64,000 nucleotides of DNA from a virus (IMGVR_UViG_3300033489_000001:126023-190022); one strand, 5' to 3'. Counted from the stretch's first letter, positions 8,649 to 28,113 are shown. Translations and numbers: made by a program. The notes: a model not told the origin generated them from the letters alone.

Positions 8649-8655
8649 GTTTTTA

Positions 8656-10665: not shown

Positions 10666-10890
10666 TTAGTCGGATAATATGAAACCCTCAACTGCTAAAT
10701 GTTTGAGCTGCTTACGCACTTCGGCGGCTTCCGAGACCACAATCTCGTGAACCCACCAATATTGAGCAATGACGCCTAAAGCACAAGGTGCTCCGGCGGA
10801 TTTGAACCACATCTCCGCCACCTCTGGAGTCATTTTCATATCCCGGACAGCAATAGCTTTTAGCATTTCATTTAATTGAGTTCGGGTCAT
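10666..10890 (-). CDS. hypothetical protein
   Basis: 74 aa; ATG abuts promoter motif. Confidence 0.6.
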   Translation of the reverse strand: MTRTQLNEMLKAIAVRDMKMTPEVAEMWFKSAGAPCALGVIAQYWWVHEIVVSEAAEVRKQLKHLAVEGFILSD

Positions 10891-10925
10891 ATCTATTACT
10901 ACACCGGAGAGAGATTTAATTCAAG
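10891..10925 (-). promoter_or_regulatory. M1 promoter motif
   Basis: Abuts ATG 10890. Confidence 0.7.
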
Positions 10926-10991
10926 TTTATTTTTAGCTCGGAAATTCGAGGAGGTCATCAAATTAAAGTAAGCACACCTTAATGAGTGGGA

Positions 10992-11522: not shown

Positions 11523-12098
11523 TTAGACAGAGTACTCTACCACCTTGGCCGCATCCGCCTCGCAAATGGTTTTCCACTCGGCTTGAACGGCGTCTCTAAC
11601 CGAACGGATTCGGTCAAAAAAGCGTTCACAACCTTCTCCCCACCTCGTGGCATCTTCATCGGAATTCCCCTTCAGCTTACGAAAAGCTTCCCTCATTGCA
11701 CACTCGGCCGTAGCACACCGCTCAGCCACTTCTAAGTGGAGCTTGGCCGCAGCAATCCCTTCCAAGGTTGAACCACTAAAACTCGCCCATGACGGACGGC
11801 AACGGACAATAAGCCCTTCACGGCGGTCCCAACCCACAAAAACCTCCACGGAAATAGACATATAGAAGGCCACCTCTTGCTTGTAGGTGTATGTCAGGCC
11901 GCCAATTGAAGACACTTCCTTAAGCCGATGATCAAAACCCTGGTCTTCGTACAACTTTAACCACCTCGGATCGGCCTTCGTCGGATAAAATAGGTTGTAA
12001 AAGCCCGGCTCAAAATACCCGAAAGCCGTAACAAAAGCGTTCTCAATGACCGTAGCCACTACCTTGTCACTGAAATCCTTTACCGTCTTGTTAGACAT
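11523..12098 (-). CDS. hypothetical protein
   Basis: 191 aa; promoter motif plus Shine-Dalgarno-like leader. Confidence 0.65.
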   Translation of the reverse strand: MSNKTVKDFSDKVVATVIENAFVTAFGYFEPGFYNLFYPTKADPRWLKLYEDQGFDHRLKEVSSIGGLTYTYKQEVAFYMSISVEVFVGWDRREGLIVRCRPSWASFSGSTLEGIAAAKLHLEVAERCATAECAMREAFRKLKGNSDEDATRWGEGCERFFDRIRSVRDAVQAEWKTICEADAAKVVEYSV

Positions 12099-12150
12099 GA
12101 ATTTTTTCTCCTTCCCCTATTACTACACCGGAGGGAGGAAAAGTTCAAGG
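12099..12150 (-). promoter_or_regulatory. M1 promoter motif with short leader
   Basis: Consensus 18 nt upstream of ATG 12098. Confidence 0.6.
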
Positions 12151-12234
12151 AATTCTTAAAAATCCCCGCTTTTTTCTTTATTTATAAAGATCGCGGAAAT
12201 TATCACTCCCACCCTCTTTTCAAGATAAAAGCCC

Positions 12235-12903
12235 CTAATGCTTCCGGTGCATGTCTATGATCGACCGGAGAATAAACTTCAACTCCCTTATGTCCTTCAA
12301 AGAATGAGCATAAGGAATCAGATTTTGAAACTTTCGCTTGTCTTTCTCTATATCCCCTGGAGCCCACGCCGGATTGAGAACCATCCCCTCCCAATTAACC
12401 GAATCGTAAAGCTCTACTATATCAGCCTTTATCTTCGGCAGCTCCCTAATGAATCGCTCCGCAACTTCCTTATACCCCACCGCTAACCCTAGCATATCCC
12501 CAACCCGAGCTTGATCCCGCCTCTCCCTGAATAACCCCTGAATAGATGCTAACCCAGAAGCCCCCTCATCATATGAGGCCACAAACTCCTTAGCAGCATC
12601 CCCACGCTCAAAAAATCGGTCGCCAATGAATGGCCACCACGTTTTGAAAAGAAATCGACTCACCCCCCGTATATCAGCGTTCTTGCTCTTTTTAATAAGA
12701 AAAGTGCTGAAAATATCCTTCCCATCAACTCTATTAAAAGCTTCCTCTAATTCATTGAGCCGGTCACCAAGCTTCGCCGTCTCAGGCCCAACCCGCAATA
12801 TCTCGTCAGCTTTCATGAAGCGTGCCGCTACCCGTACATTAGATGCTGTTTCCATAACCCTAAGCGTACCATTAAATGAAAAATCTTGGCTTTTCGTTTG
12901 CAT
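12235..12903 (-). CDS. hypothetical protein
   Basis: 222 aa. Confidence 0.55.
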   Translation of the reverse strand: MQTKSQDFSFNGTLRVMETASNVRVAARFMKADEILRVGPETAKLGDRLNELEEAFNRVDGKDIFSTFLIKKSKNADIRGVSRFLFKTWWPFIGDRFFERGDAAKEFVASYDEGASGLASIQGLFRERRDQARVGDMLGLAVGYKEVAERFIRELPKIKADIVELYDSVNWEGMVLNPAWAPGDIEKDKRKFQNLIPYAHSLKDIRELKFILRSIIDMHRKH

Positions 12904-13139
12904 TTAATGGATTTCTAATACAACTTCAAAACAGACCCTAACAAAGGTCTACAGCTCTTTGAAAAAGATAAGCGGTTCTAAAGAAAGTCTTCCTTTAGGT
13001 AAAATCTGAAAAGCGAGAGCTGTTTGGAGAAGGTTTTATACCTTCGCCGATAATTGAAACGTCCAGAAATTACCGGCCCTAAAAAATTTCCGCTTTCTCA
13101 AAAACCCCTACACCATTTCAAAAAAGGGGTATCCCCCAC

Positions 13140-14500
13140 GAAAATCAAAGAGCCTATTTATAGCCTCTAGGTTCGTTTTTTCCTTCCGCCCACTAACGAG
13201 CGAAGCGAGTATCAGCCAAAAGCCGAGAGGAGCCTATTTATGTCCCACTCATAAAGAAAGTGGGCTTTCTTTGTAGCTGCACTCTATCCAAAAGAAGATA
13301 AAAATCAAACCGTTTATTTATCAAGATCCGTACTGGACCATATAATCTGCCCCCTAAGCGTCACCTCCAACCCTCCTTCCCGCTCACAAACCCCAAAAGT
13401 ACCCTGCCTCGTCTCTACCCCAACTACATCGTATACCCTGGAAAGTAATACGTTTTGCGTCGTTTCAATCGCTACTAAATGCTTACCGTCACCTATCCGT
13501 ATCTTCATGGCGTTCCCTCTCATATCTAGGTGAAAAGACCTATACCCCAAAATCCCCCTATCCGAAAATTTCAACCATAAAAAAATTCCGCCTCCCCCTG
13601 AAAACCTACCCCTTTCTAAAAAGACCCCCTCCCCTTTATCTCGCTCCCTATGTAACTCGCTAACGCTCAAACCTTTCCTTAAATGACCTTTCAGAATTCC
13701 TCCGTTTAAGACCATGCGTATACTGAATGTGCCAATTACGGATAATAGCAAATTTTAAAAAAATAATGAAGCGGTTTTCCCCAATTTTTACCGCAAATAT
13801 CTTTATAAATAAAGATGGGATTAATCCGAGTAAATGGTATGGATCTTGATCATATAGCAACTGTAGTTGATCAAATCAAGATCAGCATACAACGAGTAAA
13901 TGGCACGGATCTTGATGATATTACAACTGTAGTTGATCAAATCAAGATCGAGGAACAAGGGCGATGGCACGACTATGCCCCTTCGGGGCGGGTCAAGCCG
14001 TGGCCATAGTTGTTCGATGATCTTTATTTATAAAGACTGTAGGTCATTAAAATAAATAAGGCCGATCTTGATGATATTGCAACTGTAGTTGATATGATCA
14101 AGATCGCGGGGGCTTAAAAGAGGCGGTGGTATAAAGGGAAAAGGGCATAGTCAAGCCCCTTAGTATACCTCCGGCCCTTCGGGCCGGGCAAGAACCGGTG
14201 GGCATAGACCATGCCAAGGATTATTGAAACCGATCTTTATTTATAAAGATCAGAAAAAATAAATTGGCATGGATCTTTATTTATAAAGATGGGGGCTATT
14301 ATTTGAAGCCAAGCTTGTGTTGGGCCTCGTGCGGCATAGATACCGGCTCCGGGAGCCGGGTCAGGGCGGCCTCCGGCCGCCAAGGACTAAGGCATCTGGC
14401 TATAGGGCTACTGGTTTCTTGCCCCTACCATCTGGGCGATAGGCTAGGGGCTTCGGGGGCACTATGTTAAGGGCCTCGAGCCGGACGATGTCCTTCTGTA
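13140..14500. repeat. repeat-dense non-coding region A
   Basis: 3 copies of a 42 bp GATCTTGAT...ATCAAGATC palindrome (13842-13883, 13908-13949, 14055-14106), >=4 M2 palindromes, UUCG-loop GC hairpins; no convincing CDS. Confidence 0.7.
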
Positions 14501-14819
14501 ACTCTAGTTTGTTACTGATGGCTGCCACCTTCCGCCCCCGGTCATTGGAGACAGGTCCTTCCATGATTTGGTCTAGAGCAGTTACCGCTTGCTGGATGAA
14601 GTCCGTAAACTCCTCCAAGGTCCTTCTCTGCTTTAGGGCTTCACACCGCCACGCCTTAGCATCATCTAGGGGAATGTTTGGGTTTTTTCCTTTTAGTTTT
14701 TTTACGCATAGTTCTTTCGGTAGTATACTGACCTTTAGAGGAAGCTGTAAAGGCTGCCTCTGTAATTGAAACATGCGGACGCCCTGACCTGGAAGCCGCC
14801 CAAGAGCGATTGCCTTCAA
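14400..14819 (-). CDS. hypothetical protein
   Basis: 139 aa; 3' end runs into the repeat-rich region. Confidence 0.35.
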   Translation of the reverse strand: MKAIALGRLPGQGVRMFQLQRQPLQLPLKVSILPKELCVKKLKGKNPNIPLDDAKAWRCEALKQRRTLEEFTDFIQQAVTALDQIMEGPVSNDRGRKVAAISNKLELQKDIVRLEALNIVPPKPLAYRPDGRGKKPVAL

Positions 14820-14874: not shown

Positions 14875-15507
14875 TTATTTACGCCTTTCTTTGGCTTCCC
14901 GACGCTCTCGAGCCTCAATCAAATCTCTGCCCCATGAGCCTTGCTCATCGCACCTTTTGCCATACCGGCGATGCAAGGTTTTCATAGTTTCTAAGTTATC
15001 ACCGCAAAGGTGATCCCAGATGTCGTACCACGCCGTATGGAATCTTTGGCCCTTAGCGGGTTTCCAAATCAAGGCATCCGCATGGACGATGGTTAGGACC
15101 TTCCCGGCTCTTTCGGCCACCTGGGACAGCCAGGTGCTTACTAACGTAATGACATCGGCATCTAGTTCTATCACGGTCACGCTTTGAACTTCGGGCGTTA
15201 AGAGACAGGCACGGGTCACCATACCAAGGCCTAAGCCAGCGATTAGAACATGCCCGTGGGCGCTTCTAATAAACCCCAGGTGGTCACTAATCTCATCCGG
15301 GGTATCGCTCATGACTACGCCCCGTTGAGTGTGGTAAAGCCCCGTATAAGTCCCCTCCGGCACCCCCCGGCCCCGGCTGCTACTAATGGCCGCTCGCAGC
15401 TCTTCAAACTTTGCCGCTTCTGCACTCACAGTAAACCGTCTGATGCTCCACTGCCCCAATTGCCCCACCGGTACGTCAACCTTATATTGGTCCGTGTATC
15501 GTTCCAT
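14875..15507 (-). CDS. class I SAM-dependent methyltransferase-like (spermidine-synthase-like fold)
   Basis: 210 aa; VLIAGLGLG glycine motif and VTVIELD acidic strand; ATG abuts promoter motif. Confidence 0.65.
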   Translation of the reverse strand: MERYTDQYKVDVPVGQLGQWSIRRFTVSAEAAKFEELRAAISSSRGRGVPEGTYTGLYHTQRGVVMSDTPDEISDHLGFIRSAHGHVLIAGLGLGMVTRACLLTPEVQSVTVIELDADVITLVSTWLSQVAERAGKVLTIVHADALIWKPAKGQRFHTAWYDIWDHLCGDNLETMKTLHRRYGKRCDEQGSWGRDLIEARERREAKERRK

Positions 15508-15542
15508 ATCTATTACTACACCGGAGGGGAGAATAATTCAAG
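15508..15542 (-). promoter_or_regulatory. M1 promoter motif
   Basis: Abuts ATG 15507. Confidence 0.7.
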
Positions 15543-15545
15543 TTT

Positions 15546-15974
15546 TTACGTCATTTTCTTGATATTTCGGGCTATAGCTTGAAACAGCAAGAAAGCTACC
15601 ATAAACCCCATGAAATTCCTAGGTTCAAGGAACACGCAGGAAAGAGCGTTAAGGGCCATCAAGCCAAGGTACAGGTAACCAGCCCATTTCTTCATGAACC
15701 ACATACCAACCACACAAATTGAGAGGAGTACTACTCCAATTATGATTAGTATGGGGGATAGTTGCAGTCTCTCCATTACAGATGCGTCGGCAACAGCAAA
15801 GCTAATAAGGAGTAGTACTGAGGCGACGACGCTAAGGATGCACACTACGGTCACTCCGAGTGGGCGTTCTAAAGTGCCTACCTTCTGCACTGGTGGGGCT
15901 CCTGGTTCAGGTGCAACTGTAGTAGTAGCTATGGGTTGGATTTCGGACGAATCATTTTTTTGTTCGTTGGGCAT
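15546..15974 (-). CDS. multi-pass membrane protein
   Basis: 142 aa, 3-4 hydrophobic helices; 3x18 bp tandem repeat upstream. Confidence 0.55.
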   Translation of the reverse strand: MPNEQKNDSSEIQPIATTTVAPEPGAPPVQKVGTLERPLGVTVVCILSVVASVLLLISFAVADASVMERLQLSPILIIIGVVLLSICVVGMWFMKKWAGYLYLGLMALNALSCVFLEPRNFMGFMVAFLLFQAIARNIKKMT

Positions 15975-16011
15975 ATCTTTATTTCCTCGTTTTTAGGTTA
16001 TTCTCTCTAAA

Positions 16012-16065
16012 TTATCTTTCCTAATGATGTTATCTTTCCTAATGATGTTATCTTTCCTAATGATG
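16012..16065. repeat. 3 perfect tandem copies of 18 bp TTATCTTTCCTAATGATG
   Basis: Directly upstream of minus-strand membrane-protein gene 15546-15974. Confidence 0.85.
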
Positions 16066-16094: not shown

Positions 16095-16367
16095 TCATTT
16101 CTCTACCCCTTTGCTCTCGGTAAATGTGAAAGTACCATCATCTTGAGAGACATAACCCTTTACACGCTTACCTTTGATTATCCTGTAAGCGGGTATTGTA
16201 AAATAGGTGTCGGGTATTCCACAGCGCACGGCACGGATGATGTGATCAGCACAAAGGCACCTTGCTTTACGTGTCATGCCTCCCCTTGAATAGGCGGCTT
16301 CTTCAGATTGCACCCATGTGTTATTGAGCCCTTCTATAATGTATACTTTGTAAACCATGGGTTTCAC
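16095..16367 (-). CDS. hypothetical protein
   Basis: 90 aa. Confidence 0.5.
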   Translation of the reverse strand: MKPMVYKVYIIEGLNNTWVQSEEAAYSRGGMTRKARCLCADHIIRAVRCGIPDTYFTIPAYRIIKGKRVKGYVSQDDGTFTFTESKGVEK

Positions 16368-16675
16368 TCAAAGTAAAAGGCCGTTACGCGGGCGTTTTGA
16401 TAATCGTAAGGCTCATGATGAATGAGTACGCCATCCAGGTTCTTGTACTCTCCACGGGCTATGTTCCGCCACTTCTCTACGCGGGAACAGTTCTGAGCAA
16501 GTGCAAAGCCGATAGGGCTCGTGCTCTGTGTAAACCCGTAGACATAGCCGTTCTTTTCCAGGTGCTTCTCTGCCTCAACCTTCGAAGCGAAAATCTCCGC
16601 CTTTTGGATTTTCTTGCCCGCGATTTTGGCAATCTCTTCCGCCGCATTCCTAACTTTTTCTACTATGGTCGGCAT
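16364..16675 (-). CDS. hypothetical protein
   Basis: 103 aa; promoter motif upstream. Confidence 0.55.
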   Translation of the reverse strand: MPTIVEKVRNAAEEIAKIAGKKIQKAEIFASKVEAEKHLEKNGYVYGFTQSTSPIGFALAQNCSRVEKWRNIARGEYKNLDGVLIHHEPYDYQNARVTAFYFE

Positions 16676-16722
16676 ATCTAACTCCTTTCTTGTTACTACA
16701 CCGGAGGGGAGAATAATTCAAG
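16676..16722 (-). promoter_or_regulatory. M1 promoter motif
   Basis: Upstream of ATG 16675. Confidence 0.6.
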
Positions 16723-17018
16723 TTTTTAGAGAGCTTCTTGAGTGGCGGCAATACATTCAAGATGGCGGCCCACGGAGGGCAACGGATCCGTCCCCTCGTA
16801 ATGTTTACTGCCATCCTTACCATTTCGAATGTAGTCCGGCCGTCCAATCCTGAATAAAAGGCATTCAGGCCGACCGCTCACGCCGGTTCGAATTAAGAAA
16901 CGACATTTCCCACAAAAAGGTCCCGTGGCCTCTATCTTTAAACCATATACAGTTAAAAGAATCATCTAAATCTCCCTCAAAAATTGAGCTTTTCGATTAT
17001 ACCCCCGCCAGTATTCGT

Positions 17019-17237
17019 TTACTTTACGTCTACGTACTCAAACACCATCGCAAGCACGTCATCGTAGCTGCCTGCCGCTATAGCGCGATTTCTAAACTCT
17101 TGAGCTTTTTCTGCTTGCCCAGCACGCTTGAGTACATTGCTTACCCGGCCAATAATGGCAAATACGTTGCCGTCTTCACCTATCAATTTGCACACGGGCT
17201 TGGTTTCTGCATTTACATTTTGAGCATTTTGTTTCAT
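17019..17237 (-). CDS. hypothetical protein
   Basis: 72 aa; ATG abuts promoter motif. Confidence 0.6.
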   Translation of the reverse strand: MKQNAQNVNAETKPVCKLIGEDGNVFAIIGRVSNVLKRAGQAEKAQEFRNRAIAAGSYDDVLAMVFEYVDVK

Positions 17238-17270
17238 CTATTACTACACCGAGAGAAGGAATAATTCAAG
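17238..17270 (-). promoter_or_regulatory. M1 promoter motif
   Basis: Abuts ATG 17237. Confidence 0.7.
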
Positions 17271-17348
17271 TTTTTTAAGAATTTGCTTTGTACCCAGCTA
17301 ATGTTTAATGTAACTTAGCGGAGAGGGAATCTAAAAATTCCTCGATAA

Positions 17349-17459
17349 TTGAAATTGCCTAAGGTTTCTTTTATTATAAGCTGCTCATTAGGGGAGCCCC
17401 TGTCGCGTCTCATGGACCTCCCCCGATCCCGGACGCTCTGACGGGGCTCCCCTTTTTAT
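17349..17459 (+). ncRNA. candidate small structured RNA: promoter TTGAAA-N17-TATTAT, then long GC-rich hairpin with T5 tail
   Basis: -35 at 17349-17354, -10 at 17372-17377; imperfect stem GGGGAGCCCCTGTCGCGTC/GACGCTCTGACGGGGCTCCCC (17391-17452) then TTTTTAT. Confidence 0.4.
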
Positions 17460-17527
17460 CCGTATGAATGTTTTTGACTCTATAGGGGGCAAGGTCGGAT
17501 AAAAATTCTTCACTCAATTCTAAGAAC

Positions 17528-17561
17528 TTGAATTATTCTTTCCCCCGGTGTAGTAATAGTT
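17528..17561 (+). promoter_or_regulatory. M1 promoter motif (plus orientation)
   Basis: TTGAATTATTCTTTCCCCCGGTGTAGTAATAGTT then ATG 17562. Confidence 0.7.
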
Positions 17562-17894
17562 ATGCCAAATAACTATGGGGAGGTTGTAATGAGGGAAGAG
17601 AAACTTGTTGAGCGAAGAGGTAAGACAGACTGTGCCGACGAAGAAGTTCGCGTTCAAGTAACCAGGCTTGGGGATGATTACAAAGTGTCAATACAATCTA
17701 CCAAGACAATTTCGACCGTAACCGCGACTTCTAACAGTACGTTAGCACCTGCCTTCACCGCTGCTCTTAGGGCTGCCATCTTGCAAGGCATCAGCTTTTC
17801 TTCGGCTGTGATAACCACAAAACGTGCCTATCAAGCGGCCGGAAACGTGCTTTTTTCAGATGAGCCCTCTTATGACTGTTATAAAACAAGCTAA
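17562..17894 (+). CDS. hypothetical protein
   Basis: 110 aa; ATG abuts promoter motif. Confidence 0.6.
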   Translation: MPNNYGEVVMREEKLVERRGKTDCADEEVRVQVTRLGDDYKVSIQSTKTISTVTATSNSTLAPAFTAALRAAILQGISFSSAVITTKRAYQAAGNVLFSDEPSYDCYKTS

Positions 17895-18159
17895 AATAAG
17901 AATCAAGCCGGACGCCCAACGCTTAGAACAAGCTATTGTTATACATGAGGTATCCACTGGGTATTTGGCCCGTTTGGGCCGTCAAGAAATATCTCGTGAT
18001 TCAAGTCTTGACCGGGTTATGAAAGATGTGCAGTCATGGTGCAAAATAAGATGTGCGTCTAATTATCCCGAGATATACATTGTAAATCTTCCTAGTAGCA
18101 TTGCTTTACTTGACCCACAAGGCAATCAATTGACGGAATGGCGCATAAACTCTCATTAG
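17824..18159 (+). CDS. hypothetical protein
   Basis: 111 aa; may start at a later Met. Confidence 0.45.
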   Translation: MPIKRPETCFFQMSPLMTVIKQAKIRIKPDAQRLEQAIVIHEVSTGYLARLGRQEISRDSSLDRVMKDVQSWCKIRCASNYPEIYIVNLPSSIALLDPQGNQLTEWRINSH

Positions 18160-18172
18160 GAAAAAAGGAAAT

Positions 18173-18385
18173 ATGAAAAACTACATTACTCACGACGGAA
18201 AAACGGTATCGAGTGCAGAGGTACGAAGAGCAAGTGCAGAGGACCATTGTTGGAAGTGCGGTAAGCCCCTGGCAATCATCCGTAACAAGGATGCTTATGA
18301 CAGCATTGAAGAATGCATAGCTGACGGCCTAGATCCTAACAAGGAGTGCGGAGCCGCCTGTATAAATTGCGGAGCTGAATCCTAA
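18173..18385 (+). CDS. Zn-ribbon small protein
   Basis: 70 aa, CWKCG...CINCG. Confidence 0.5.
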   Translation: MKNYITHDGKTVSSAEVRRASAEDHCWKCGKPLAIIRNKDAYDSIEECIADGLDPNKECGAACINCGAES

Positions 18386-18470
18386 GCATCACTTTTTCCC
18401 CGGCGTCCGAATCTTAGTTTATTCTTCTTCAATCCCTCCTAGCTCAATTACATCTTACCTTCGAAAAAAC

Positions 18471-18545
18471 TTGAATTAATTCCCCCACCGGTGTAGTAAT
18501 AAAAGTAAAGTAAAATTCTACTAACAATCTAACAGGGAGATCAGT
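18471..18545 (+). promoter_or_regulatory. M1 promoter motif with ~45 nt Shine-Dalgarno-containing leader
   Basis: TTGAATTAATTCCCCCACCGGTGTAGTAAT. Confidence 0.6.
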
Positions 18546-19133
18546 ATGTCAAAGTCAGTGAAAGAGATAATTGAGGGACAGGTAGATGAACTTCGAGTAG
18601 CCACTATGGAAGTTCACAAAATACAGGAGGCCAGTGCCAAGCAGTTGGAAGGCGTAACTAAAGCGATAGGGGAGAGCCTCAAGTCCCCTATAAGGCGGAT
18701 GTGGGCCAAGTTGGCCGGTAAAGAAGCCACTCTTGCGCCTCTAGAAGAGATCGTGATGGACTTAGGGGAAGTTACGAATTCGTTAACGGAGTGTGTACAT
18801 GCCGTGGATTCGATAGAAGCGATCGGTCCCGGAAACATGCTGAAAGCCGTCACGGAAATTCATGAGGTGGCCGAAAGAAGCACGCTGCGGCTCAGGACCT
18901 TAACCTTAACCATGGAAGAAACTCTCAAGTCGCCCGTAGCGAAGTTAGCGGCCATGGCGACCGGGAAGAGGGCATTCTTCAACAAGCTGATTGACATAGA
19001 GAATAATCAAGCTTCGATCGTGGCTTGCCTAGCAGATTGCGTCAGCGGCGTGGCACAGATGAAGGAAGTTGCGGATGTGCAACGCGGAGTGACCTCCATT
19101 CCGGCTCCGGCCGCCGCCCAAGAGGGCAAGTAA
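18546..19133 (+). CDS. hypothetical protein
   Basis: 195 aa; promoter motif and GGGAG Shine-Dalgarno upstream. Confidence 0.65.
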   Translation: MSKSVKEIIEGQVDELRVATMEVHKIQEASAKQLEGVTKAIGESLKSPIRRMWAKLAGKEATLAPLEEIVMDLGEVTNSLTECVHAVDSIEAIGPGNMLKAVTEIHEVAERSTLRLRTLTLTMEETLKSPVAKLAAMATGKRAFFNKLIDIENNQASIVACLADCVSGVAQMKEVADVQRGVTSIPAPAAAQEGK

Positions 19134-19218
19134 AGCTAAACGTTTCCGGCTGGGGTGTGTCTCCCCCAGCCCAATTCGTGTTTCAAACAGAAATCCTATG
19201 TAGTCTGAGGTGCCTTAG

Positions 19219-19461
19219 ATGACAGATCACTTTTCCATTGGTAATGACGAACTTGAAAAGCTGCCCGAGGCGGAAGAGCTGGCTCAATGTCCGCGTTGCT
19301 TAGGCGTGCATCCCATCGTGTGGAGCACCGATCCCAAAGGGCAGCCAACTCGCGTCTTGGGGACCGTTCTATGTGAAGGAAAGCACTGGTTGGTGGCCGT
19401 GGCCGGGAAGTTAATACCACCCAACACATTCAAGAGCCCGAAGAGAGCCGCGACGGCCTGA
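19219..19461 (+). CDS. hypothetical protein
   Basis: 80 aa. Confidence 0.45.
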   Translation: MTDHFSIGNDELEKLPEAEELAQCPRCLGVHPIVWSTDPKGQPTRVLGTVLCEGKHWLVAVAGKLIPPNTFKSPKRAATA

Positions 19462-19469
19462 AGTAAGAG

Positions 19470-19787
19470 TTGAGTATGTCTAAAAAACCTGACGAAACAG
19501 TTAGAATGATCTGGATCTATCTCGAAGTAAAACGGCAGTTTCTAGAACTCAAGCGTACCGATCCCCGGTTGGATTGGAATTACCCTCCTACGCCTCCAGG
19601 AAAGGTCTACTTTCGCAAAGGCTATAACCCAAAGAGTGGATTTAATTATTGCTGCTGGGGCCATACCAAAGCCGAAGCGGCGGCCAAATACAATGAACTG
19701 TGGTTGAAACAAATCAAAGAGATCCAGGAACGAGCGGACAGAGAAATAGCCGAGCTACGAAAGCGGCTTGCAGCCGAAAACGTTTAA
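19470..19787 (+). CDS. hypothetical protein
   Basis: 105 aa. Confidence 0.5.
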   Translation: MSMSKKPDETVRMIWIYLEVKRQFLELKRTDPRLDWNYPPTPPGKVYFRKGYNPKSGFNYCCWGHTKAEAAAKYNELWLKQIKEIQERADREIAELRKRLAAENV

Positions 19788-19788
19788 G

Positions 19789-19989
19789 TTATGCCCTCAT
19801 GAAAAGAGCGTTCAACTCCGCCTTTAGGTCTTCCGTAGTAGGGGCCACACGACTGAAATCGTCCAAAAGGGCCAGCACTAACACAACGTCGATGGTGTTT
19901 ACAGTCACATCATACCCAAGCTCTTTGCAATATCGGGCGAAACGAACCTCAGTGGGATTTTTTGGGTCAATTTTCAGTATAGCTTCCAT
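19789..19989 (-). CDS. hypothetical protein (paralog of 30955-31155, shared YCKELGYD)
   Basis: 66 aa; ATG abuts promoter motif. Confidence 0.6.
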   Translation of the reverse strand: MEAILKIDPKNPTEVRFARYCKELGYDVTVNTIDVVLVLALLDDFSRVAPTTEDLKAELNALFMRA

Positions 19990-20024
19990 ATCTATTACTA
20001 CACCGGAGAGAGAAAAAATTCAAG
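19990..20024 (-). promoter_or_regulatory. M1 promoter motif
   Basis: Abuts ATG 19989. Confidence 0.7.
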
Positions 20025-20025
20025 T

Positions 20026-20268
20026 TTAAAGGCAGGGGTTTAGGTGTTTAAAGATAGAAAGCTGGCCGCCTTTTTTCTGTTGACAATACAGCTCGTTAGC
20101 GTGCCTTACGGCGACGGTTTTATTATTGAATCGCTGATCGGATTGCCCGGCCGGAGTGAAGACGCTCCACTTGGAATCATCCAAGCTAAGAATGAGATCG
20201 TAATAGAATCCGCCCCAAACGCGAGCTGTCAAACCCGTACGAGTCTTTTTCCAACTAAGCCGGTCCAT
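20026..20268 (-). CDS. hypothetical protein
   Basis: 80 aa; ATG abuts promoter motif. Confidence 0.55.
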   Translation of the reverse strand: MDRLSWKKTRTGLTARVWGGFYYDLILSLDDSKWSVFTPAGQSDQRFNNKTVAVRHANELYCQQKKGGQLSIFKHLNPCL

Positions 20269-20342
20269 ATCTATTACTACACTGAAAACCGAGAAAATTC
20301 AAGATCAAAAACTTGAATTATTCCCTTCTCCGGTGTAGTAAT
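20269..20342. promoter_or_regulatory. back-to-back divergent M1 promoter pair
   Basis: -35 elements form the inverted repeat ATTCAAGATCAAAAACTTGAAT; minus-side ATG 20268; plus side has no gene for ~200 bp. Confidence 0.65.
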
Positions 20343-20538
20343 AGAAGAGTACTAAGGACAAGTTAAACTTGAACGGGTGAGTCATTCTTAGTGACACAGA
20401 CAGCGTAGGGATGTGTATGATAATGATGACTGCTTCCTTACTAAATTGTGTTTTACCCTATAAGAAAACAAACTTGTGGTGTACAACTCTTTCTCACTCC
20501 CGGCTGTATTAAGGGATAACTTATGAAGGAATCTAGCA

Positions 20539-20727
20539 ATGTCTATAGCAATCTATGAAGAGGGACAAGAGATAGATCGAGTATCCGAAATGCCTAAAGC
20601 ATATGATGTAATAACGAACCGCTTAGAAGTAAGTTCCATACGCTTGCTGTTACAAGAAAACTTAGAACAAGGCGTTCGCTGGACCCATCAAGGCTCGGGT
20701 CGTTCTATTGAAGTGCTCTTCGAATAA
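20539..20727 (+). CDS. hypothetical protein
   Basis: 62 aa. Confidence 0.4.
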   Translation: MSIAIYEEGQEIDRVSEMPKAYDVITNRLEVSSIRLLLQENLEQGVRWTHQGSGRSIEVLFE

Positions 20728-20750
20728 CAAAAACCTAAGATCAGAAAAAG

Positions 20751-21044
20751 ATGAAAATAAACATCCTAAAAATAAATATCCTAAAAATATACCGCCGAAT
20801 CATAAAAGCTTCGATTCATAATAGGGGTGTACGATTAGTAAGGGACGACATTGTAAATTTAGGAATACGTTCCTTAGGCAAATCCGACGAAGTCTGGCAA
20901 AAGGTGTTTCAAGCTTACTTCCACTTAGAAGGAAAGCTCACTTTAACCAAGGAAGAAGTCGCCCACCTGGCCAAAACTATTGAACTACGAGACACCCTGA
21001 GGCCGCCCGCCATGAGAGGGAAGAGCCTGTGGCCGTTAGCCTAA
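20751..21044 (+). CDS. hypothetical protein
   Basis: 97 aa; 5' end contains a 17-nt direct repeat. Confidence 0.4.
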   Translation: MKINILKINILKIYRRIIKASIHNRGVRLVRDDIVNLGIRSLGKSDEVWQKVFQAYFHLEGKLTLTKEEVAHLAKTIELRDTLRPPAMRGKSLWPLA

Positions 21045-21078
21045 GCAAAGCGTAATATACTATCAAAGGAATTTTGAT

Positions 21079-21282
21079 ATGGGTGACATTACTATATTTT
21101 TCAAAGATGGCCACGTTATTGGCTCCTGCCCTGTTGGTCACGAACAGGAGTGGGTCCAGCCTGGGAAAGGTAGGGAATCACAGAGCTATAACTCTACTAA
21201 ACGCTCAACCGATGAATGTTGGCATAATTGGGCAAGGGCTCGTGTTCACGTATCTGAAGAAATAGCCCAACGGGAACTTTGA
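21079..21282 (+). CDS. hypothetical protein
   Basis: 67 aa. Confidence 0.35.
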   Translation: MGDITIFFKDGHVIGSCPVGHEQEWVQPGKGRESQSYNSTKRSTDECWHNWARARVHVSEEIAQREL

Positions 21283-21317
21283 CAGCTAAAGCCGTGTTTT
21301 AGCCACAACCAGTTCAT

Positions 21318-21391
21318 ATCTATTATTACAAAAAGAGAATAATTCAAAATCAAAAACTTGAATTATTCTCTTCTGCGGTGTAGTAATAGAT
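21318..21391. promoter_or_regulatory. back-to-back divergent M1 promoter pair
   Basis: ATTCAAAATCAAAAACTTGAAT; plus-side ATG 21392; minus side followed by only a 23-codon ORF. Confidence 0.65.
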
Positions 21392-21580
21392 ATGGCAAAT
21401 TCATGTCTATGCCCAGACGCACGAATGGTACACAAAATCCGTGAACTCTATACGGCCGTGACGTCTAATTGTGAGCAAGACCTTCAAAATCGCTGCCACA
21501 TTGGAACGTGGCTATGCCCTCTTTTTATAGAACCCCCTATAGTGATTGATGAGAGAAAAGAAGACCATGAAAAGGTATAA
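21392..21580 (+). CDS. hypothetical protein
   Basis: 62 aa; ATG abuts promoter motif. Confidence 0.55.
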   Translation: MANSCLCPDARMVHKIRELYTAVTSNCEQDLQNRCHIGTWLCPLFIEPPIVIDERKEDHEKV

Positions 21581-21800
21581 TTACCCTCTGGTTTGCAAAG
21601 CCACCTCGAGGGTTGGAAGCTGCCACATCAACCGGACGATCGGAGGCCAGGGGTTGTCTTACAACGAGGTCCTAAAGAAAATTACTATGGAGCGCGAGCG
21701 GGATATGCATGACATTCGGGAGTTTGAAGGTCAGATGTTGAGCATTCAAGACCTTACCGGCGCGGTGCATCAACGGAAGATTACACTAGACTTAGCTTGA
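21546..21800 (+). CDS. hypothetical protein
   Basis: 84 aa. Confidence 0.45.
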   Translation: MMREKKTMKRYNYPLVCKATSRVGSCHINRTIGGQGLSYNEVLKKITMERERDMHDIREFEGQMLSIQDLTGAVHQRKITLDLA

Positions 21801-21807
21801 GAAAAAC

Positions 21808-21841
21808 TTGAATTATTCTCTTCCTCGGTGTAGTAATAGAT
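21808..21841 (+). promoter_or_regulatory. M1 promoter motif
   Basis: Abuts ATG 21842. Confidence 0.7.
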
Positions 21842-22129
21842 ATGGGTAAAGACGAAAGAATTCCATTGAAGATTAAAGTGGGGGAGCTGTTTACCGGTCG
21901 CAAATCATTGCGTCCTTATAAGACCTGCTACAGCATAACGTCTACCTATATGGACGAAGTTTATACACACGGCTATCACGTTACCGCCGAATCCAAAACC
22001 GATATTACGATGGTGTTACGGGCGTTACTCATACGTCAAGGGACCACTTGGGCAGAAGCTAACAAACGGGCGGTGGCCGTTGCTAAAATGACTCCGACCA
22101 GCTGGGGCACCTATGATACCCTCTTGTAA
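21842..22129 (+). CDS. hypothetical protein
   Basis: 95 aa; ATG abuts promoter motif. Confidence 0.6.
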   Translation: MGKDERIPLKIKVGELFTGRKSLRPYKTCYSITSTYMDEVYTHGYHVTAESKTDITMVLRALLIRQGTTWAEANKRAVAVAKMTPTSWGTYDTLL

Positions 22130-23707: not shown

Positions 23708-24112
23708 ATGACCTGTCATTACCCTACCCTATTAGCAGAAGCCGAAAGCAAACTCCTAAAACTTGGATGGGAAAAAACCAATGGCTCCTATTCTTCGGGT
23801 AAAGATAAAAGCATAGGTTACCCCCTAACCCTAGCTCTGGAAGCTGAAAGCAAACTCCTAACTCAAATGGTGCTCGACTTGAAAAACTTCGCCCCACAAG
23901 AACCCGCTTCCATAGAAAAGGTCAACACTACATATCAGCATGAGGATGTCCTTACACGCCTCCATAGCCTAGAACTCAGCATGGCCGCCCATAAACAACA
24001 AATAAGTAAGCTCGATACGTTTAGAGCAACCCTCCTTCAAGGAATAAAAGCGTCCCTCCTCCCGGATGCCCAAGAGTGGCTTGCAGAAGAAAACCCAAAG
24101 CCAAATAAATAA
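23708..24112 (+). CDS. KLGW-family protein (paralog family A)
   Basis: 134 aa; LxKLGW...Y...ALEAE motif shared with 27695, 35847, 36324, 38405, 39621. Confidence 0.55.
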   Translation: MTCHYPTLLAEAESKLLKLGWEKTNGSYSSGKDKSIGYPLTLALEAESKLLTQMVLDLKNFAPQEPASIEKVNTTYQHEDVLTRLHSLELSMAAHKQQISKLDTFRATLLQGIKASLLPDAQEWLAEENPKPNK

Positions 24113-25150
24113 ATAAATAGCCTCATCTTTATTTATAAAGATCCCTACCCTTTATTTATAGCCTCATCTTTATTTATAGCCTCTGGCTATTTTTTAATTT
24201 CAAAAATCCGTACCTCCCTATTTTTATAATTGGATAGCCGCAATAAATGGTACGGATCTTGATTTGATCAACTACAGTTGCTATATCATCAAGATGGGGC
24301 TATTTACTCTCTCTATTCCGATCTTGATTTGATCAACTACAGTTGCTATATCATCAAGATCCCTCGAACGACAATGGCATAACCTTTGCCCGGCCTTCGG
24401 GCCGGGCGTGGTGAGCCTTAGGTCACTCGAATATTCTTCCTATCTTTATTTATAAAGATCCTCATAATTATTTTCATCTTTATTTATAAAGATCCCACGT
24501 ATACACGAGCCATGCTCCGCCCCGTAGGGGCGGCTGGCATTGTCAATGTAAAATTCACATGCCTGCTGAATAAAATTGTCAGGCCGGAAATACCGTTACC
24601 ATTGTAATCTAACAGTGCGAAATCATTTATTGTTTTGTACAAGAACCATGCCAATATATTTTCCATATTTTCCAACCTTTTCAGAAAATAAGTTTACATT
24701 CTGACTGTACAGGATCTTGATAAATAGGGTTTTGAAAAATAGAAGTAATCAAATAAATTGGATCAATCTTTATAAATAAAGACAGGATGAATAATCTGAG
24801 GGTAATGGGGCTTACCCGGCCGGGCCTTCGGGGGGCACGGCAAGGTTATTCCCATTACCTAGACTACCGTAGAGTGGAAGGAGGTGCATAAGCGACAACC
24901 GAGGCATGGCCCTGGGGCTGGGTGATAAGGCTTAGGGCGTGTCATAGAGGCTTGGGGGCGGAATTGACGCTGTTACTAGTACTAGATAGGGTTTAGGGCG
25001 GGATTAGGGGATTGAGGGGGCTCTGATAGGGGTATGGAAGGCTTTAGGCAACCTTCTTGGAACAAAGGGGGGGGTTGATTAAATAAAAGGTCAAAGGCAA
25101 ACTAGCTTGGTGTTATTTAGAGATTGGAAAGAGCAAGGTTGAGAAAGGGA
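24113..25150. repeat. repeat-dense non-coding region B, inverted relative to region A, followed by a G-rich tract
   Basis: 42 bp palindromes in opposite orientation at 24255-24295 and 24311-24352, >=4 M2 palindromes, UUCG hairpins, TTAGGG-like G-runs at 24850-25090. Confidence 0.7.
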
Positions 25151-25160
25151 TAAAGTTGCT

Positions 25161-25427
25161 GTGTTCAGATTCCACATAAAGGATTACATAGGGCAAAGAG
25201 TCTGCGAGCACGTTAGACTAAAACTAGATTTTCCTACTGATGTACAAAATGCGGGTGAAAAGGTTAGGTACACCTTGGGTCACGAAGGAACTCAATGCTT
25301 CTGTAATTTGAGACTTCTTACGGGGCTTTCAGGGGAAGATTTGTTTCAAGCTTTAGAGGAGCTTAGGGACAAAGGAGTGGTTATTTTCTTAGGGGGGCCT
25401 TTTCGACTATTTAGTGGGAAAAGTTAG
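25161..25427 (+). CDS. hypothetical protein
   Basis: 88 aa ORF after G-rich tract. Confidence 0.3.
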   Translation: MFRFHIKDYIGQRVCEHVRLKLDFPTDVQNAGEKVRYTLGHEGTQCFCNLRLLTGLSGEDLFQALEELRDKGVVIFLGGPFRLFSGKS

Positions 25428-25643
25428 TTGGGAGATATGAATGACGCGGCGTAAGAAAGCTCCTCCTCCCCCTCTTGGCATCATTGTTCCCTATGTGAGT
25501 TTCCTTTACGCTATTGCCTGGGGCTTCTTTCTATCTTCGGGAGACGTGATTCTGTCCGACGTGTGGTTTTCATTATATGCCTAGGGAGCTTCCCCCTGCT
25601 TTGGGACAGCTTTTAAACTGGCTAGAGCATCCGCATAAAAGGG

Positions 25644-25678
25644 CATCTTTATTTATAAAGATAATTACGGGATTTTTT
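25644..25678 (+). promoter_or_regulatory. M2 palindromic motif ATCTTTATTTATAAAGAT + AATTACGGGATTTTT
   Basis: Second conserved upstream element class. Confidence 0.45.
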
Positions 25679-25734
25679 GAAATAAGGGAAGCTGAACCTT
25701 GATAGGCCAGGGTTCCGGTGTAATACTAGCTTGT

Positions 25735-25768
25735 GATCTTTATTTATAAAGATAATTACGGGATTTTT
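25735..25768 (+). promoter_or_regulatory. M2 motif
   Basis: Repeat of the 25644 element, ~70 nt upstream of ATG 25810. Confidence 0.45.
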
Positions 25769-25809
25769 GGGTTAGGCAGAGGTGCAGAATCTTTTCTTTT
25801 TTAGGAATT

Positions 25810-26196
25810 ATGAATACAAAGCGTCCTGATTGTTTAGCTTGTGGGGTATGTTGTTGGGCTATGGAAGAGGCCAAGCTACTGGATTCTTGGGGTCGGAAGC
25901 ACATTGTAGAGGTTCCCTGGAATGATCCTCACGCTTGGGTAGGGACTTACGGAGCCATTGAGACCAAGTGGCGAACGATGAAGGCTGGTCCTTTGAAAGG
26001 GCGGGAGATTCTTATTTGTGAAGCTTTACGAGGCTCGATGCTTCATCGAGTTAAATGCAGTATTTATGAAAAGAGGCCTTCGGTTTGTAAGGTGACTTTT
26101 CGGCCTGGGGACTTAGCATGTTTGAAGTTGAGGAGGAGGCTTGTAAGTGAAACATACAAGGTGTCTAGACAAGAAGACGCCACAAGAGGTCCTTGA
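25810..26196 (+). CDS. YkgJ-family CxxCxxCC zinc/iron-chelating domain protein
   Basis: 128 aa; CLACGVCC ... CSIYEKRPSVC pattern. Confidence 0.6.
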   Translation: MNTKRPDCLACGVCCWAMEEAKLLDSWGRKHIVEVPWNDPHAWVGTYGAIETKWRTMKAGPLKGREILICEALRGSMLHRVKCSIYEKRPSVCKVTFRPGDLACLKLRRRLVSETYKVSRQEDATRGP

Positions 26197-26334: not shown

Positions 26335-26604
26335 ATGATTCCGAAACATCTTCTTCCGCGTACCGTGTTACTAGAAGTTGTCAACCACGAGGAGTACGTT
26401 GAATACGAATCTGAACTTGACCCTGACGGCAAACAAACTTTGAAGCGTAGCCTTGATGGCAAGCCCATTAAAATTGAAGGTTCCGAAACCGCTTTCCTTC
26501 ATTTGAAAGCCCTTGATGGTAAAATCATTCGAGCGCAGATCTCGCATGAAAATCTTGACAAAATCTTAGCTCTCAGATTTCCTGAAGACTTTGACAAGAA
26601 ATAA
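26335..26604 (+). CDS. hypothetical protein
   Basis: 89 aa. Confidence 0.45.
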   Translation: MIPKHLLPRTVLLEVVNHEEYVEYESELDPDGKQTLKRSLDGKPIKIEGSETAFLHLKALDGKIIRAQISHENLDKILALRFPEDFDKK

Positions 26605-26607
26605 AGG

Positions 26608-26636
26608 CTATTTATAAAGATAATTGCGGGCTTTTT
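26608..26636 (+). promoter_or_regulatory. M2 motif (half palindrome) + GGTGTAGAGCTATT
   Basis: Upstream of ATG 26668. Confidence 0.45.
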
Positions 26637-26667
26637 CGGTGTAGAGCTATTATGGAAGCTCCAAATT

Positions 26668-26937
26668 ATGACGAAAGACAAGTTTGAGACCTTAATGCGT
26701 GAGATCACTATAGCGAAGGCGAAGCTTGAAGCTGCTAATATGGCCGTAGATCGAATATGTCTTTCCGAGAAATACCTAGATGCCGTCCGTGGCCATCTAG
26801 GTCATTTTAAGAGAATTAATGGCAAACGGTCTTTACTTGGGTATCCGGTTTACAGGTCCTTGGGTTCTTACGTTAGGTCTTCGGCTAAATTTGGCAAGAA
26901 GGCCATGTATATAGAGTTTTCAGGGCTAGCGGATTAA
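26668..26937 (+). CDS. hypothetical protein (MTKDKFETLM paralog 1)
   Basis: 89 aa; tandem paralog of 26996-27265; palindromic promoter motif upstream. Confidence 0.55.
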   Translation: MTKDKFETLMREITIAKAKLEAANMAVDRICLSEKYLDAVRGHLGHFKRINGKRSLLGYPVYRSLGSYVRSSAKFGKKAMYIEFSGLAD

Positions 26938-26943
26938 TTCATG

Positions 26944-26995
26944 CATCTTTATAAATAAAGATATTTAGCGGGTTTTTGAGGTGTAGAGCTATTGC
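26944..26995 (+). promoter_or_regulatory. M2 motif + GGTGTAGAGCTATTGC -10-like box
   Basis: CATCTTTATAAATAAAGATATTTAGCGGGTTTTTGAGGTGTAGAGCTATTGC then ATG. Confidence 0.5.
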
Positions 26996-27265
26996 ATGAC
27001 AAAAGACAAATTTGAGACTTTGATGTCCGAGATAGCTAAGGCGAAGAGCAAGCTTGAAGCTGCTGATGTTCCGGTGGATCGTATATACATCACCAAGGAG
27101 TACCTAGATGCCATTCGTGGTTATGTAGGGCATTTAGAGAGGCTTGAGGGTAAGCCATCTTTATTTGGGCATCCGGTTTTTAGGGGGCCGGAATCGTTAG
27201 TTACCTCTTCGGCTAAGTTTGGCCTCCGGTGTGTGAAGATAGAGTTTTCGAGGCTAGAGGATTAA
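26996..27265 (+). CDS. hypothetical protein (MTKDKFETLM paralog 2)
   Basis: 89 aa; tandem paralog. Confidence 0.55.
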   Translation: MTKDKFETLMSEIAKAKSKLEAADVPVDRIYITKEYLDAIRGYVGHLERLEGKPSLFGHPVFRGPESLVTSSAKFGLRCVKIEFSRLED

Positions 27266-27694: not shown

Positions 27695-28081
27695 ATGATT
27701 AATCTCTTTAGGAAGGTTTTGTCTCTTTTCAAGCTTCGCCGGGTTACGATTGAAGAGTCTTTGAGCAATCCGGTTAGGAAGCCTCTTGAGGAAGGCTTCA
27801 CTGATAAAGCTCCTAACTGGCTCATAGCCCTAGAAGCCCATAACTTCCTAGTCCGGCAAGGTTGGATAAAGGACCAAGACTACTATCTTCCGCATAAAGA
27901 CGCCAAAATCCGATACCCTTTAATCAAGGCTCTGGAAACCGAAAGCGAACGCCTAACCGACTTAATCACCACGCTCAAAGAAGCCCCTGCATCCTTCGAT
28001 CCTAAGGACCCTCTTTCTTTAGAAGGGATTTTGGATCAAATAAACAAGTCGGTTGCGTTTCAATTACGGAAGAGATCTTAG
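27695..28081 (+). CDS. KLGW-family protein (divergent)
   Basis: 128 aa; YPLIKALETESERL resembles YPLTLALEAESKLL of 23708. Confidence 0.5.
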   Translation: MINLFRKVLSLFKLRRVTIEESLSNPVRKPLEEGFTDKAPNWLIALEAHNFLVRQGWIKDQDYYLPHKDAKIRYPLIKALETESERLTDLITTLKEAPASFDPKDPLSLEGILDQINKSVAFQLRKRS

Positions 28082-28113
28082 GATCACTCCCTAGTCTTCT
28101 CTAAGGCAATTAC

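Follow-up and report, generated by a model that had tools for sequence, protein, structure and literature searches.

A near-invariant repeat abutting start codons as the probable promoter of mostly leaderless genes in a lineage of huge uncultured phages

A 64,000-nucleotide stretch of viral DNA (IMGVR_UViG_3300033489_000001:126023-190022; hereafter the window) carries more than 20 copies of a strongly conserved repeat of about 37 bp, which in most cases ends where an open reading frame (ORF) begins. What is this repeat, and what would read it? The original prediction, made for positions 17238-21841, took it for a promoter. Exact matching of its proteins assigns the window to an uncultured phage, on a metagenomic contig of 411,476 bp (ENA ERZ27256988 k141_5351839); this phage was also met in Logan run SRR10376092 and, with a length of 411,618 bp, among JGI sequences. 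A comparison with 50,697 deposited phage records gave no nucleotide or motif match, Rfam gave no match, and in the literature the sample accessions do not appear and the motif words occur solely as primers. Pfam domains were found in almost none of the ~136 called genes. Judging from its layout, its orientation and its fixed distance from in-frame start codons, the repeat is very probably the promoter of one class of genes, most of which would give leaderless mRNAs.

The layout in the window is AAAAA-CTTGAAT-(12 pyrimidine-rich nt)-CGGTGTAGTAATA. We find 22 strong copies together with one decayed and one weak copy, where none is expected by chance, so that the predicted number of more than 20 hyper-conserved copies holds. 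With one mismatch or none, the 11-mer GGTGTAGTAAT is found 23 times where shuffles predict 0.68, and CTTGAA(T/C) sits 13 nt upstream of it in 22 of these 23 matches. When scanned with a weight matrix built from the 22 copies themselves, the copies score 35-61 bits, compared with a top score of 3.3 among 20 shuffled windows. Invariant or nearly so are CTTGAA, the T two positions later (T(-13)), CGGTGTAGTAATA and C-GGTGTAGTAAT-A. The upstream box is preceded by five A-rich positions, beyond which nothing is conserved, and the 12-nt spacer is rich in C and T with variable letters. Summed over 43 alignment columns, the information content is ~54 bits, several-fold more than is needed to locate a few dozen sites in a 411-kb genome. 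The prediction of conservation in excess of what sigma70 recognition needs is supported.

The copies extend well beyond 17238-21841. Eighteen lie at 1.2-21.8 kb, one GTAATA variant at 28.8 kb and three at 54.2-58.0 kb, and three further copies were found within 8 kb to the left of the window. Of those at 1.2-21.8 kb, all to the left of ~17.4 kb have minus orientation, and most to its right have plus orientation. Two back-to-back divergent pairs had been described; one is intact (20272-20308 / 20307-20343), and the second has a decayed minus partner.

To place the copies among genes, public gene calls (~136 genes) were transferred to window coordinates. All 22 strong copies point toward the next gene and 21 are intergenic, several of them beginning 1-16 nt past the preceding stop codon. 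Bipartite, intergenic and gene-oriented, the repeat is as promoter-like as first proposed. In 13 copies an ATG stands exactly 3 nt past ...GTAGTAATA, which is 6 nt past GTAGTA, and each of these ATGs opens an ORF of 58-254 codons. At a stop frequency of 5.6%, the calculated chance of at least 58 open codons after a random ATG is ~3.5%. Because all 13 open long ORFs, these ATGs are start codons and not merely letters of the motif. The 17 nt preceding them are the motif itself and contain no Shine-Dalgarno (SD) word. Among the other 125 genes, a 4-nt SD-like word is present at -20 to -4 in 63% and a 5-nt word in 47%, compared with 23% and 9.5% of random windows. SD-led initiation is therefore the rule in this phage, and the motif is where it specifically breaks that rule. 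In total, 13-15 copies have no leader or SD, in support of the predicted leaderless genes, and five (9112, 12118, 16691, 18465 and 54247) have a GGAG-type SD in a leader of 16-45 nt. Close and constant spacing to an in-frame ATG, with no SD, is a feature of the 13 abutting copies of the window, and most copies in the relatives described below likewise have an ATG close by.

The genes linked to the motif are small ORFans together with genes for a methyltransferase, a GmrSD_N protein and an ATPase-like protein. Two copies, given as 1222 and 5725, had been said to start no annotated coding sequence. This needs amending for the first (1225), which abuts a 58-codon ORF in the public calls; the second (5728) abuts a 22-codon mini-ORF. 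The public calls omit three motif-abutting ORFs (8426-8614, minus; 20026-20268, minus; 21392-21580, plus) and give a fourth an SD-led start downstream (17589 rather than 17562, plus). Leaderless genes are mis-annotated in this phage.

A sequence that touches so many start codons could also act in RNA, as a conserved 5' untranslated or translation-initiation region (a CU-rich tract plus GGUG) in transcripts that begin further upstream. Many copies lie 1-80 nt past the preceding stop codon without a recognisable terminator, so read-through transcripts that contain the motif probably exist. However, conservation stops at the A-tract, and the head-to-head overlap within the back-to-back pair leaves other promoters no space. 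With 11 nt between it and the ATG, GGTG is more distant than an SD should be, and the tract resembles an anti-SD, not an SD. The upstream regions have no excess of RNA structure either (75 nt upstream of 22 copies: mean -13.0 kcal/mol compared with -13.5 for random 75-mers, p = 0.82). We consider a role at the RNA level very improbable.

The two boxes invite comparison with a sigma70 promoter. If +1 is the A of the abutting ATG, CTTGAA falls at -35 to -30 and GTAGTA at -12 to -7, with a 17-bp spacer. This box geometry appears to fit a sigma-type holoenzyme; the letters appear not to. The boxes had been read as a -35 TTGAAT, an 18-bp spacer and an extended -10 TG-N-AGTAAT, a reading that finds no support, since AGTAAT has G where sigma70 needs A(-11). 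In that register, with an 18-bp spacer and TG-N upstream, G occupies -11 and the A of the start codon comes only 5 nt past the hexamer. The alternative register, TAGTAA at 17 bp from TTGAAT, lacks T at -7 and has TG directly abutting. There is no TANNNT in any register of GGTGTAGTAATAGATATG (TAGTAA, TAATAG and TAGATA all fail), nor does the motif have the extended -10 form TGnTAnnnT. A sigma70 scan of the window that required A2 and T6 of the second hexamer listed none of the motif copies. The upstream box shares four of six letters with TTGACA in the window (TTGAAT, at 17-18 bp) and three of six in the relatives described below (CTAGAG/TAGAGT). The core that they share, GGTGTAGTA, is by its letters apparently no sigma70 -10.

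Canonical sigma70-like sites, with 10 or more of 12 matches, show no preference for intergenic DNA, in which just 1 of 14 lies. This sole intergenic site in the window is TTGAAA-17-TATTAT at 17349-17377. It belongs to the segment ~17276-17521, where transcription diverges: genes and copies to the left of it point leftward, those to the right point rightward, and the G-C skew changes sign.

Could the copies nevertheless be ordinary strong early promoters of the unmodified host sigma70/sigmaA holoenzyme, with TTGAAT as -35, 17-18 bp of spacing and an unusual though tolerated -10 within TGTAGTAAT, their extra identity being due to recent duplication and gene conversion? Early regions of T4, T5 and SPO1 contain dozens of similar strong promoters that are read by host RNA polymerase and precede small host-takeover genes. 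As in those families, conservation here reaches beyond the two hexamers, and many small ORFan and defence-related genes have promoters of their own. The bipartite layout, the 17-18 bp, the TTGA of the upstream box and the UP-element-like A-tract all agree with a host reader, as does the lack of a phage sigma or polymerase within the sequence read. On the other hand, the T4, T5 and SPO1 promoters keep canonical -35 and -10 boxes and give leadered mRNAs with strong ribosome-binding sites, and the motif does not. Neither register has both A(-11) and T(-7), in addition to the missing TANNNT and the empty sigma70 scan. We find an unmodified host holoenzyme unlikely, though it is the strongest of the rival explanations, and the relatives of the phage bear on it further.

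The leaderless methyltransferase (14875-15507) belongs to PHROG 15480 and has homologs in many metagenomes. In the closest (L024, 87% amino acid identity, run ERR14794643), the motif abuts the orthologous ATG and a second copy lies upstream. In L025 (68% identity, JGI 3300034419), a variant, GGTGTAGTTACTAGATATG, abuts a different gene, and a half-site is also present. The motif is absent from methyltransferase carriers at 52-60% identity, from distant carriers of a ParB-like gene of the window, and from LR745208, a 485-kb phage with one shared protein. A homolog of the window protein 53621-54244 led to a 208-kb contig with 59.6% G+C (JGI 3300022744; IMG/VR UViG_3300022744_000022, 208,486 bp), and from there a 116-kb phage contig with 57% G+C was reached. 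These two contigs hold at least 10 copies of CTAGAGTT-N11-(C/A)(G/A/T)GTGTAGTA, the general form in the relatives being CT(A/T)GA(G/A)TT-N11-CGGTGTAGTA-N5-6-ATG; an eleventh copy has CTTGAAT and a spacer longer by 1 nt. An ATG follows GTAGTA by 5-6 nt in 7 of the 10, and in L157 five copies precede called gene starts, four of them directly and one through an SD leader. The upstream box of these high-G+C relatives is CTAGAG and the downstream box continues with C or G (TAGTAC, TAGTAG), with GGTGTAGTA kept. In a divergent promoter pair that is orthologous between L157 and L158, both boxes are kept and the spacers differ.

The two groups of phages share few proteins only, at 40-69% identity. Common to genomes of 44% and of 57-60% G+C are a CTWGAR box, the same spacing, a C/T-rich spacer, GGTGTAGTA and an ATG ~6 nt later. 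An architecture kept across a 15-percentage-point difference in G+C, beyond the reach of copying within a genome, argues for function. Since the shared letters differ from the universal TTGACA/TATAAT, it also argues against a reader that is simply the housekeeping sigma of each host. For an unmodified host holoenzyme the difficulty is twofold: the boxes of the high-G+C relatives (CTAGAG; TAGTAC, TAGTAG) are still further from consensus yet keep GGTGTAGTA, and gene conversion within a genome cannot account for conservation across 44% and 60% G+C. Exact-motif scans of IMG/VR and JGI metagenomes returned single chance matches only, with non-pyrimidine spacers. In a looser scan, for CTAGAGT-N14-GTGTAGTA, the matches were dominated by a conserved but unrelated coding sequence that abundant marine phages carry, and the scan was set aside.

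Because the boxes are unlike those of housekeeping sigma70 and the same core recurs at 44% and 57-60% G+C, we infer a component of the phage lineage, and think that specificity comes from it rather more probably than from elsewhere. An extra factor, or a dedicated sigma factor or polymerase, was part of the original prediction; it is plausible, and is strengthened by a non-canonical core that recurs in relatives of very different G+C. Promoter function and start-site position are likewise what we infer from the motif. The composite reading, a lineage promoter with its specificity set in this way, seems to us probable, with less assurance than promoter function as such. The motif would then serve, across a lineage of huge uncultured phages, as the usual promoter for a single class of genes. 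Polymerase would contact the two boxes, CTTGAA and GTAGTA, and start transcription at the start codon or 1-4 nt before it, giving mostly leaderless mRNAs and a minority with a short SD leader. The specificity component could be a sigma-like factor, a sigma-redirecting protein or a phage polymerase, and would possibly be delivered with the DNA if the motif genes are the first to be expressed.

More tentatively, a phage clade that includes at least the 411-kb, 208-kb and 116-kb contigs may have its own specificity system, which would read CTWGAR-N17-GTAGTA, start exactly at AUG and thereby provide a leaderless class regardless of the promoter and ribosome-binding rules usual in the host. We rate this stronger form as possible and somewhat doubtful. 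Its reader would be a sigma-like factor or a polymerase of a kind not yet recognised, which might enter the cell along with the DNA. A candidate accessory is a conserved DNA-binding protein that adjoins copies in both phages, an MGMT-like winged-helix protein (207 aa, 53621-54244 in the window). It is fused to an alpha-CTD-like domain where the promoters have an A-tract and to a ClpX zinc finger where the A-tract is absent.

Several points weigh against a reader from the phage lineage. No sigma or RNA polymerase gene (no Pfam or PHROG polymerase match) was found in the parts read of the two large contigs, ~82 kb in the 411-kb and ~50 kb in the 208-kb one, a minority of each, and the large ORFs of the 208-kb phage encode a tail-spike/virion protein and a glucanase, with no polymerase among them. 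The 17-bp spacing, the TTGA of the upstream box and the upstream A-tract would also be expected of a host sigma70 promoter. Identity among copies within the genome may come partly from recent copying or gene conversion and not from constraint, and it is conceivable that two hosts of one unusual phylum account for the shared core. Early timing of the motif genes would follow only by analogy with T4, T5 and SPO1; the tail-spike gene of the 208-kb phage has no motif in front of it, a weak hint of non-late expression for motif genes. A conserved 126-aa protein, considered as a sigma factor, was ruled out as ParB/sulfiredoxin-like with a DGNHR motif. It is encoded at 55716-56096 (plus), has ~60% identity to its counterpart in the 208-kb phage and adjoins the winged-helix protein in both.

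How does the motif compare with known systems? T7 and SP6 single-subunit polymerases use promoters that form one contiguous, near-invariant block from -17 to +6. Near-invariant repeats with information far above what is needed for site finding are common to these and the motif. Unlike T7 promoters, the motif is bipartite, with a second invariant box ~13 nt upstream, and its positions -6 to -1 are not kept in relatives. A resemblance to the SP6 promoter (GGTG....ATAGA compared with GGTGACACTATAGA) was rejected, as ATAGA is not kept in relatives. Leaderless genes dominate many archaea, and the A-rich stretch followed by TTGAATTA at -40 to -27 could suggest an archaeal virus with a B recognition element and TATA box near -30 and an initiator at the leaderless ATG. 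Archaeal promoters are poorly matched, however, by the invariant G and C within the supposed TATA box and by 13 invariant nucleotides in a row at -16 to -4; the element is CTAGAG in relatives, and bacterial-type domains are encoded (RNA polymerase alpha-CTD, ClpX zinc finger). We give an archaeal-type promoter almost no credence, less than any other explanation considered here.

Leaderless transcripts of the Thermus phage phiYS40 were reportedly described by Sevostyanova et al. in 2007. In Deinococcus-Thermus, a -10 box adjacent to the ORF directs leaderless expression; its TANNNT is read by RpoD, usually without a -35 box, and a -35 box at 17 bp boosts such promoters (PMC12340547). The motif resembles these in having its downstream box a few bp before the ATG and differs in its GGTGTAGTA box and invariant upstream box. 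The early promoter of the virion RNA polymerase of AR9, a phiKZ-like jumbo phage, is AAATATATATTAT-N6-G+1, and promoters of this type are very sensitive to deviations and independent of host sigma (PMC5312081, PMC7598289). Here too a lineage-specific conserved block lies ~6 nt before the predicted start site, and jumbo phages are the carriers. The phiKZ-type promoter is a single AT-rich block without an upstream box (PMC5312081), whereas the motif combines a G-containing block with an invariant upstream box. AR9 leaders are 26-491 nt long and no leaderless phiKZ transcript was found (PMC5312081, PMC8244752). Genes for a phiKZ-type polymerase (split beta/beta'-like) were not seen in the parts of the 411-kb and 208-kb contigs noted above.

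The repeats also mark sites of rearrangement. L024 is a mosaic of window segments: its positions 1305-1570 correspond to window 18130-18396 (plus) and 1582-2214 to window 15544-14915 (minus), and the switch between segments falls at the 5' edge of the motif. This junction would be locally consistent with an exchange between the inverted copies at 15511-15547 (minus) and 18465-18501 (plus); further upstream, the mosaic is more complex than one inversion. In relatives, a 280-nt indel separates L157 from L158 between paired copies. Identical copies of ~40 bp may act as substrates for homologous recombination, by which cassettes of promoter plus ORF would be shuffled and inverted.

These junctions raise the possibility that the repeat is itself a recombination or mobility element, either the target of a site-specific or homing enzyme or the end of a miniature mobile cassette, its promoter look being incidental. 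The inversion-like arrangement in L024 with its breakpoint at the motif edge, the indels between paired copies of L157 and L158, and the decayed copy and half-site would suit such an element. Its strict gene orientation and in-frame start codons at one fixed distance would not, and the surroundings of the copies contain neither terminal inverted repeats nor target duplications, nor any associated gene for a recombinase. Promoter repeats of T4-type phages show the same recombination by-product (PMC2839356, PMC4122927). An element of this kind is, in our estimate, highly unlikely. A recombination signal had been named as the alternative that would refute promoter function; a junction does fall at a motif copy, as a property additional to the promoter and not an alternative to it.

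The L024 junction and the L157/L158 indel, taken with the decayed copy and the half-site, parallel the promoter-early stem-loop (PeSL) cassettes of T4-type phages (Arbiol et al. 2010, PMC2839356; Comeau et al. 2014, PMC4122927). Both are families of near-identical promoter repeats that reach the start codon in ORFan-rich, plastic regions. In both, degraded half copies lie nearby, and indels, swaps and junctions between relatives fall on the repeats, here at the L024 junction and the L157/L158 indel. The upstream stem-loop or terminator of PeSL is absent from our copies. PeSL has a sigma70-type TTGACA/TATAAT-like promoter with an SD and start codon at its 3' end, whereas the motif lacks TANNNT and, for the most part, a leader; a start codon does follow it, with an SD at five copies only. 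No compared system fits fully, and we place the motif with the phage-specific repeated promoters. The copies are listed individually in Table 1.

Table 1. Copies of the repeat in the window and the genes or ORFs next to them
Position	Strand	Copy	Context
212-248	-	Weak, doubtful relic ATTGAAA...GGTGTAGTGTCA, 11.5 bits	Found by weight-matrix scan
1219-1261	-	Motif with abutting ATG (1221-1219)	Leaderless 58-codon ORF 1045-1221; sole copy within a called gene (1172-1735)
5722-5764	-	CTTGAAA variant	Abuts 22-codon mini-ORF; next gene 5386-5625, with SD, 103 nt downstream
8061-8103	-	Motif with abutting ATG	Leaderless gene 7692-8063 (123 aa)
8612-8654	-	Motif with abutting ATG	Leaderless ORF 8426-8614 (62 aa), not in public gene calls
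9112-9148	-	Motif with 31-nt leader, GGGGAGG SD	Gene 8875-9081
9763-9805	-	GTAGTAGT variant with abutting ATG	Leaderless gene 9163-9765 (200 aa)
10888-10930	-	Motif with abutting ATG	Leaderless gene 10666-10890 (74 aa)
12118-12154	-	Motif with 20-nt leader, GGAG SD	Gene 11523-12098 (191 aa); palindromic second motif 21 nt upstream
15505-15547	-	Motif with abutting ATG	Leaderless methyltransferase gene 14875-15507 (210 aa); promoter kept in L024; homology breakpoint at 5' edge of copy
16691-16727	-	AAC variant with 16-nt leader, AAGGAG SD	Gene 16364-16675; orthologous copy in L024
17235-17275	-	Motif, ATG 2 nt nearer than usual	Gene 17019-17237 (72 aa)
17522-17564	+	Motif with abutting ATG (17562)	Second in-frame ATG at 17589 with GGGGAGG SD; start ambiguous
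18465-18501	+	Motif with 45-nt leader, GGGAG SD	Gene 18546-19133 (195 aa); paired in inverted orientation with the 15511 copy in the L024 rearrangement
19987-20029	-	Motif with abutting ATG	Leaderless gene 19789-19989 (66 aa)
20266-20308	-	AGTGTAG variant with abutting ATG	Leaderless ORF 20026-20268 (80 aa), not in public gene calls; half of intact back-to-back pair
20307-20343	+	Top-scoring copy, other half of intact back-to-back pair	No ORF and no unusual predicted structure in the next 196 nt
21315-21352	-	Decayed copy: TTGAAT, spacer 4 nt shorter, TGTAATAAT / TGTAATAATAGATATG	23-codon ORF only
21352-21394	+	Motif with abutting ATG	Leaderless ORF 21392-21580 (62 aa), not in public gene calls
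21802-21844	+	Motif with abutting ATG	Leaderless gene 21842-22129 (95 aa)
28839-28884	+	Variant GGTGTAATAATA, ATG 3 nt farther, AGGAG just before ATG	Gene 28882-29160; heads a long same-strand gene run
54247-54283	+	Motif with 18-nt leader, purine-rich SD	Gene 54301-55164 (287-aa ATPase-like); copy begins 2 nt past the alpha-CTD-like / winged-helix gene
56825-56867	+	Motif with abutting ATG	Leaderless gene 56865-57398 (GmrSD_N / DUF262 domain)
57954-57996	+	Motif with abutting ATG	Leaderless gene 57994-58758 (254 aa)

A second motif, the palindrome (GA)TCTTTATAAATAAAGA(TC), is present in 13 exact copies, compared with 1.6 expected at three or fewer mismatches. Its 16-nt sites are at 12175, 13800, 14021, 14234, 14274, 24126, 24443, 24477, 24767, 25646, 25737, 26946 and 27275, clustered in two stretches with few ORFs, one on either side of the promoter-rich block, and the palindrome is conserved in L024. 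Within it is TATAAATA, and G+C-rich hairpins follow several of the copies; possible roles are those of an operator, a second class of promoter or small-RNA units. The ORF-poor stretches (12900-14450 and 24100-25850) hold families of 41-66-nt repeats (GATCTTGAT..CAACTACAGTTG..), and a 109-nt segment at 13841-13949 recurs inverted at 24255-24362 with 89% identity. One unit in these stretches ends in GGATTATTGAAAC, resembling the end of a type I-C repeat. At 26335-27265 (plus) there are three consecutive ORFs of 89 codons, at least the last two of which have similar 3' ends and are each followed by the palindrome. At ~16010-16065, an 18-nt tandem repeat, ATCTTTCCTAATGATGTT, has three copies in the window and two in the ENA contig; this copy number is the only difference between the two over the 20.7 kb compared (window 2235-22921).

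A CRISPR-like array of at least ~60 units runs from 63005-64000 (minus) in the window to ~3.6 kb past its right edge (L022 5346-9750). The repeats, ~36 nt each, have (C)TGTAATTGAAAC at their end and hairpin stems that vary from unit to unit but remain paired. Just right of the window, genes for Cas8c/Csd1, Cas7 and a ResIII helicase (type I-C-like; L022 1-4931) adjoin the array, so the phage encodes its own CRISPR-Cas system. Compared with GTDB genomes, the phage Cas7 had no close relative. A scan with the 3' end of the repeat, as evidence on the host, returned mostly cyanobacterial 37-nt repeats of other architecture along with Fimbriimonadales and Nannocystis arrays, and was not used. Solitary repeat units lie far from the array at ~14737-14772 (plus), 28057-28092 (minus), 38175-38210 (minus) and 39276-39311 (minus). 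All consist of a hairpin plus TGTAATTGAAAC, the first matching the 15-nt end exactly (14758-14772). Those at 38.2 kb and 39.3 kb have ~35 nt of upstream sequence in common and flank a 302-aa gene. Such units could be regulatory or decoy repeat RNAs.

The repeat described here provides a sequence handle on the organisation of transcription in uncultured huge phages, a field in which almost nothing is known. For annotation, it corrects three missed motif-abutting ORFs and one start that had been shifted downstream. A promoter repeat at a cassette-swap junction outside T4-like phages would extend the PeSL idea. Our results suggest a class of promoter that lies outside the sigma70 rule and is tied to systematic leaderless translation, and if its reader is phage-encoded, the two would be a new orthogonal pair of promoter and polymerase.

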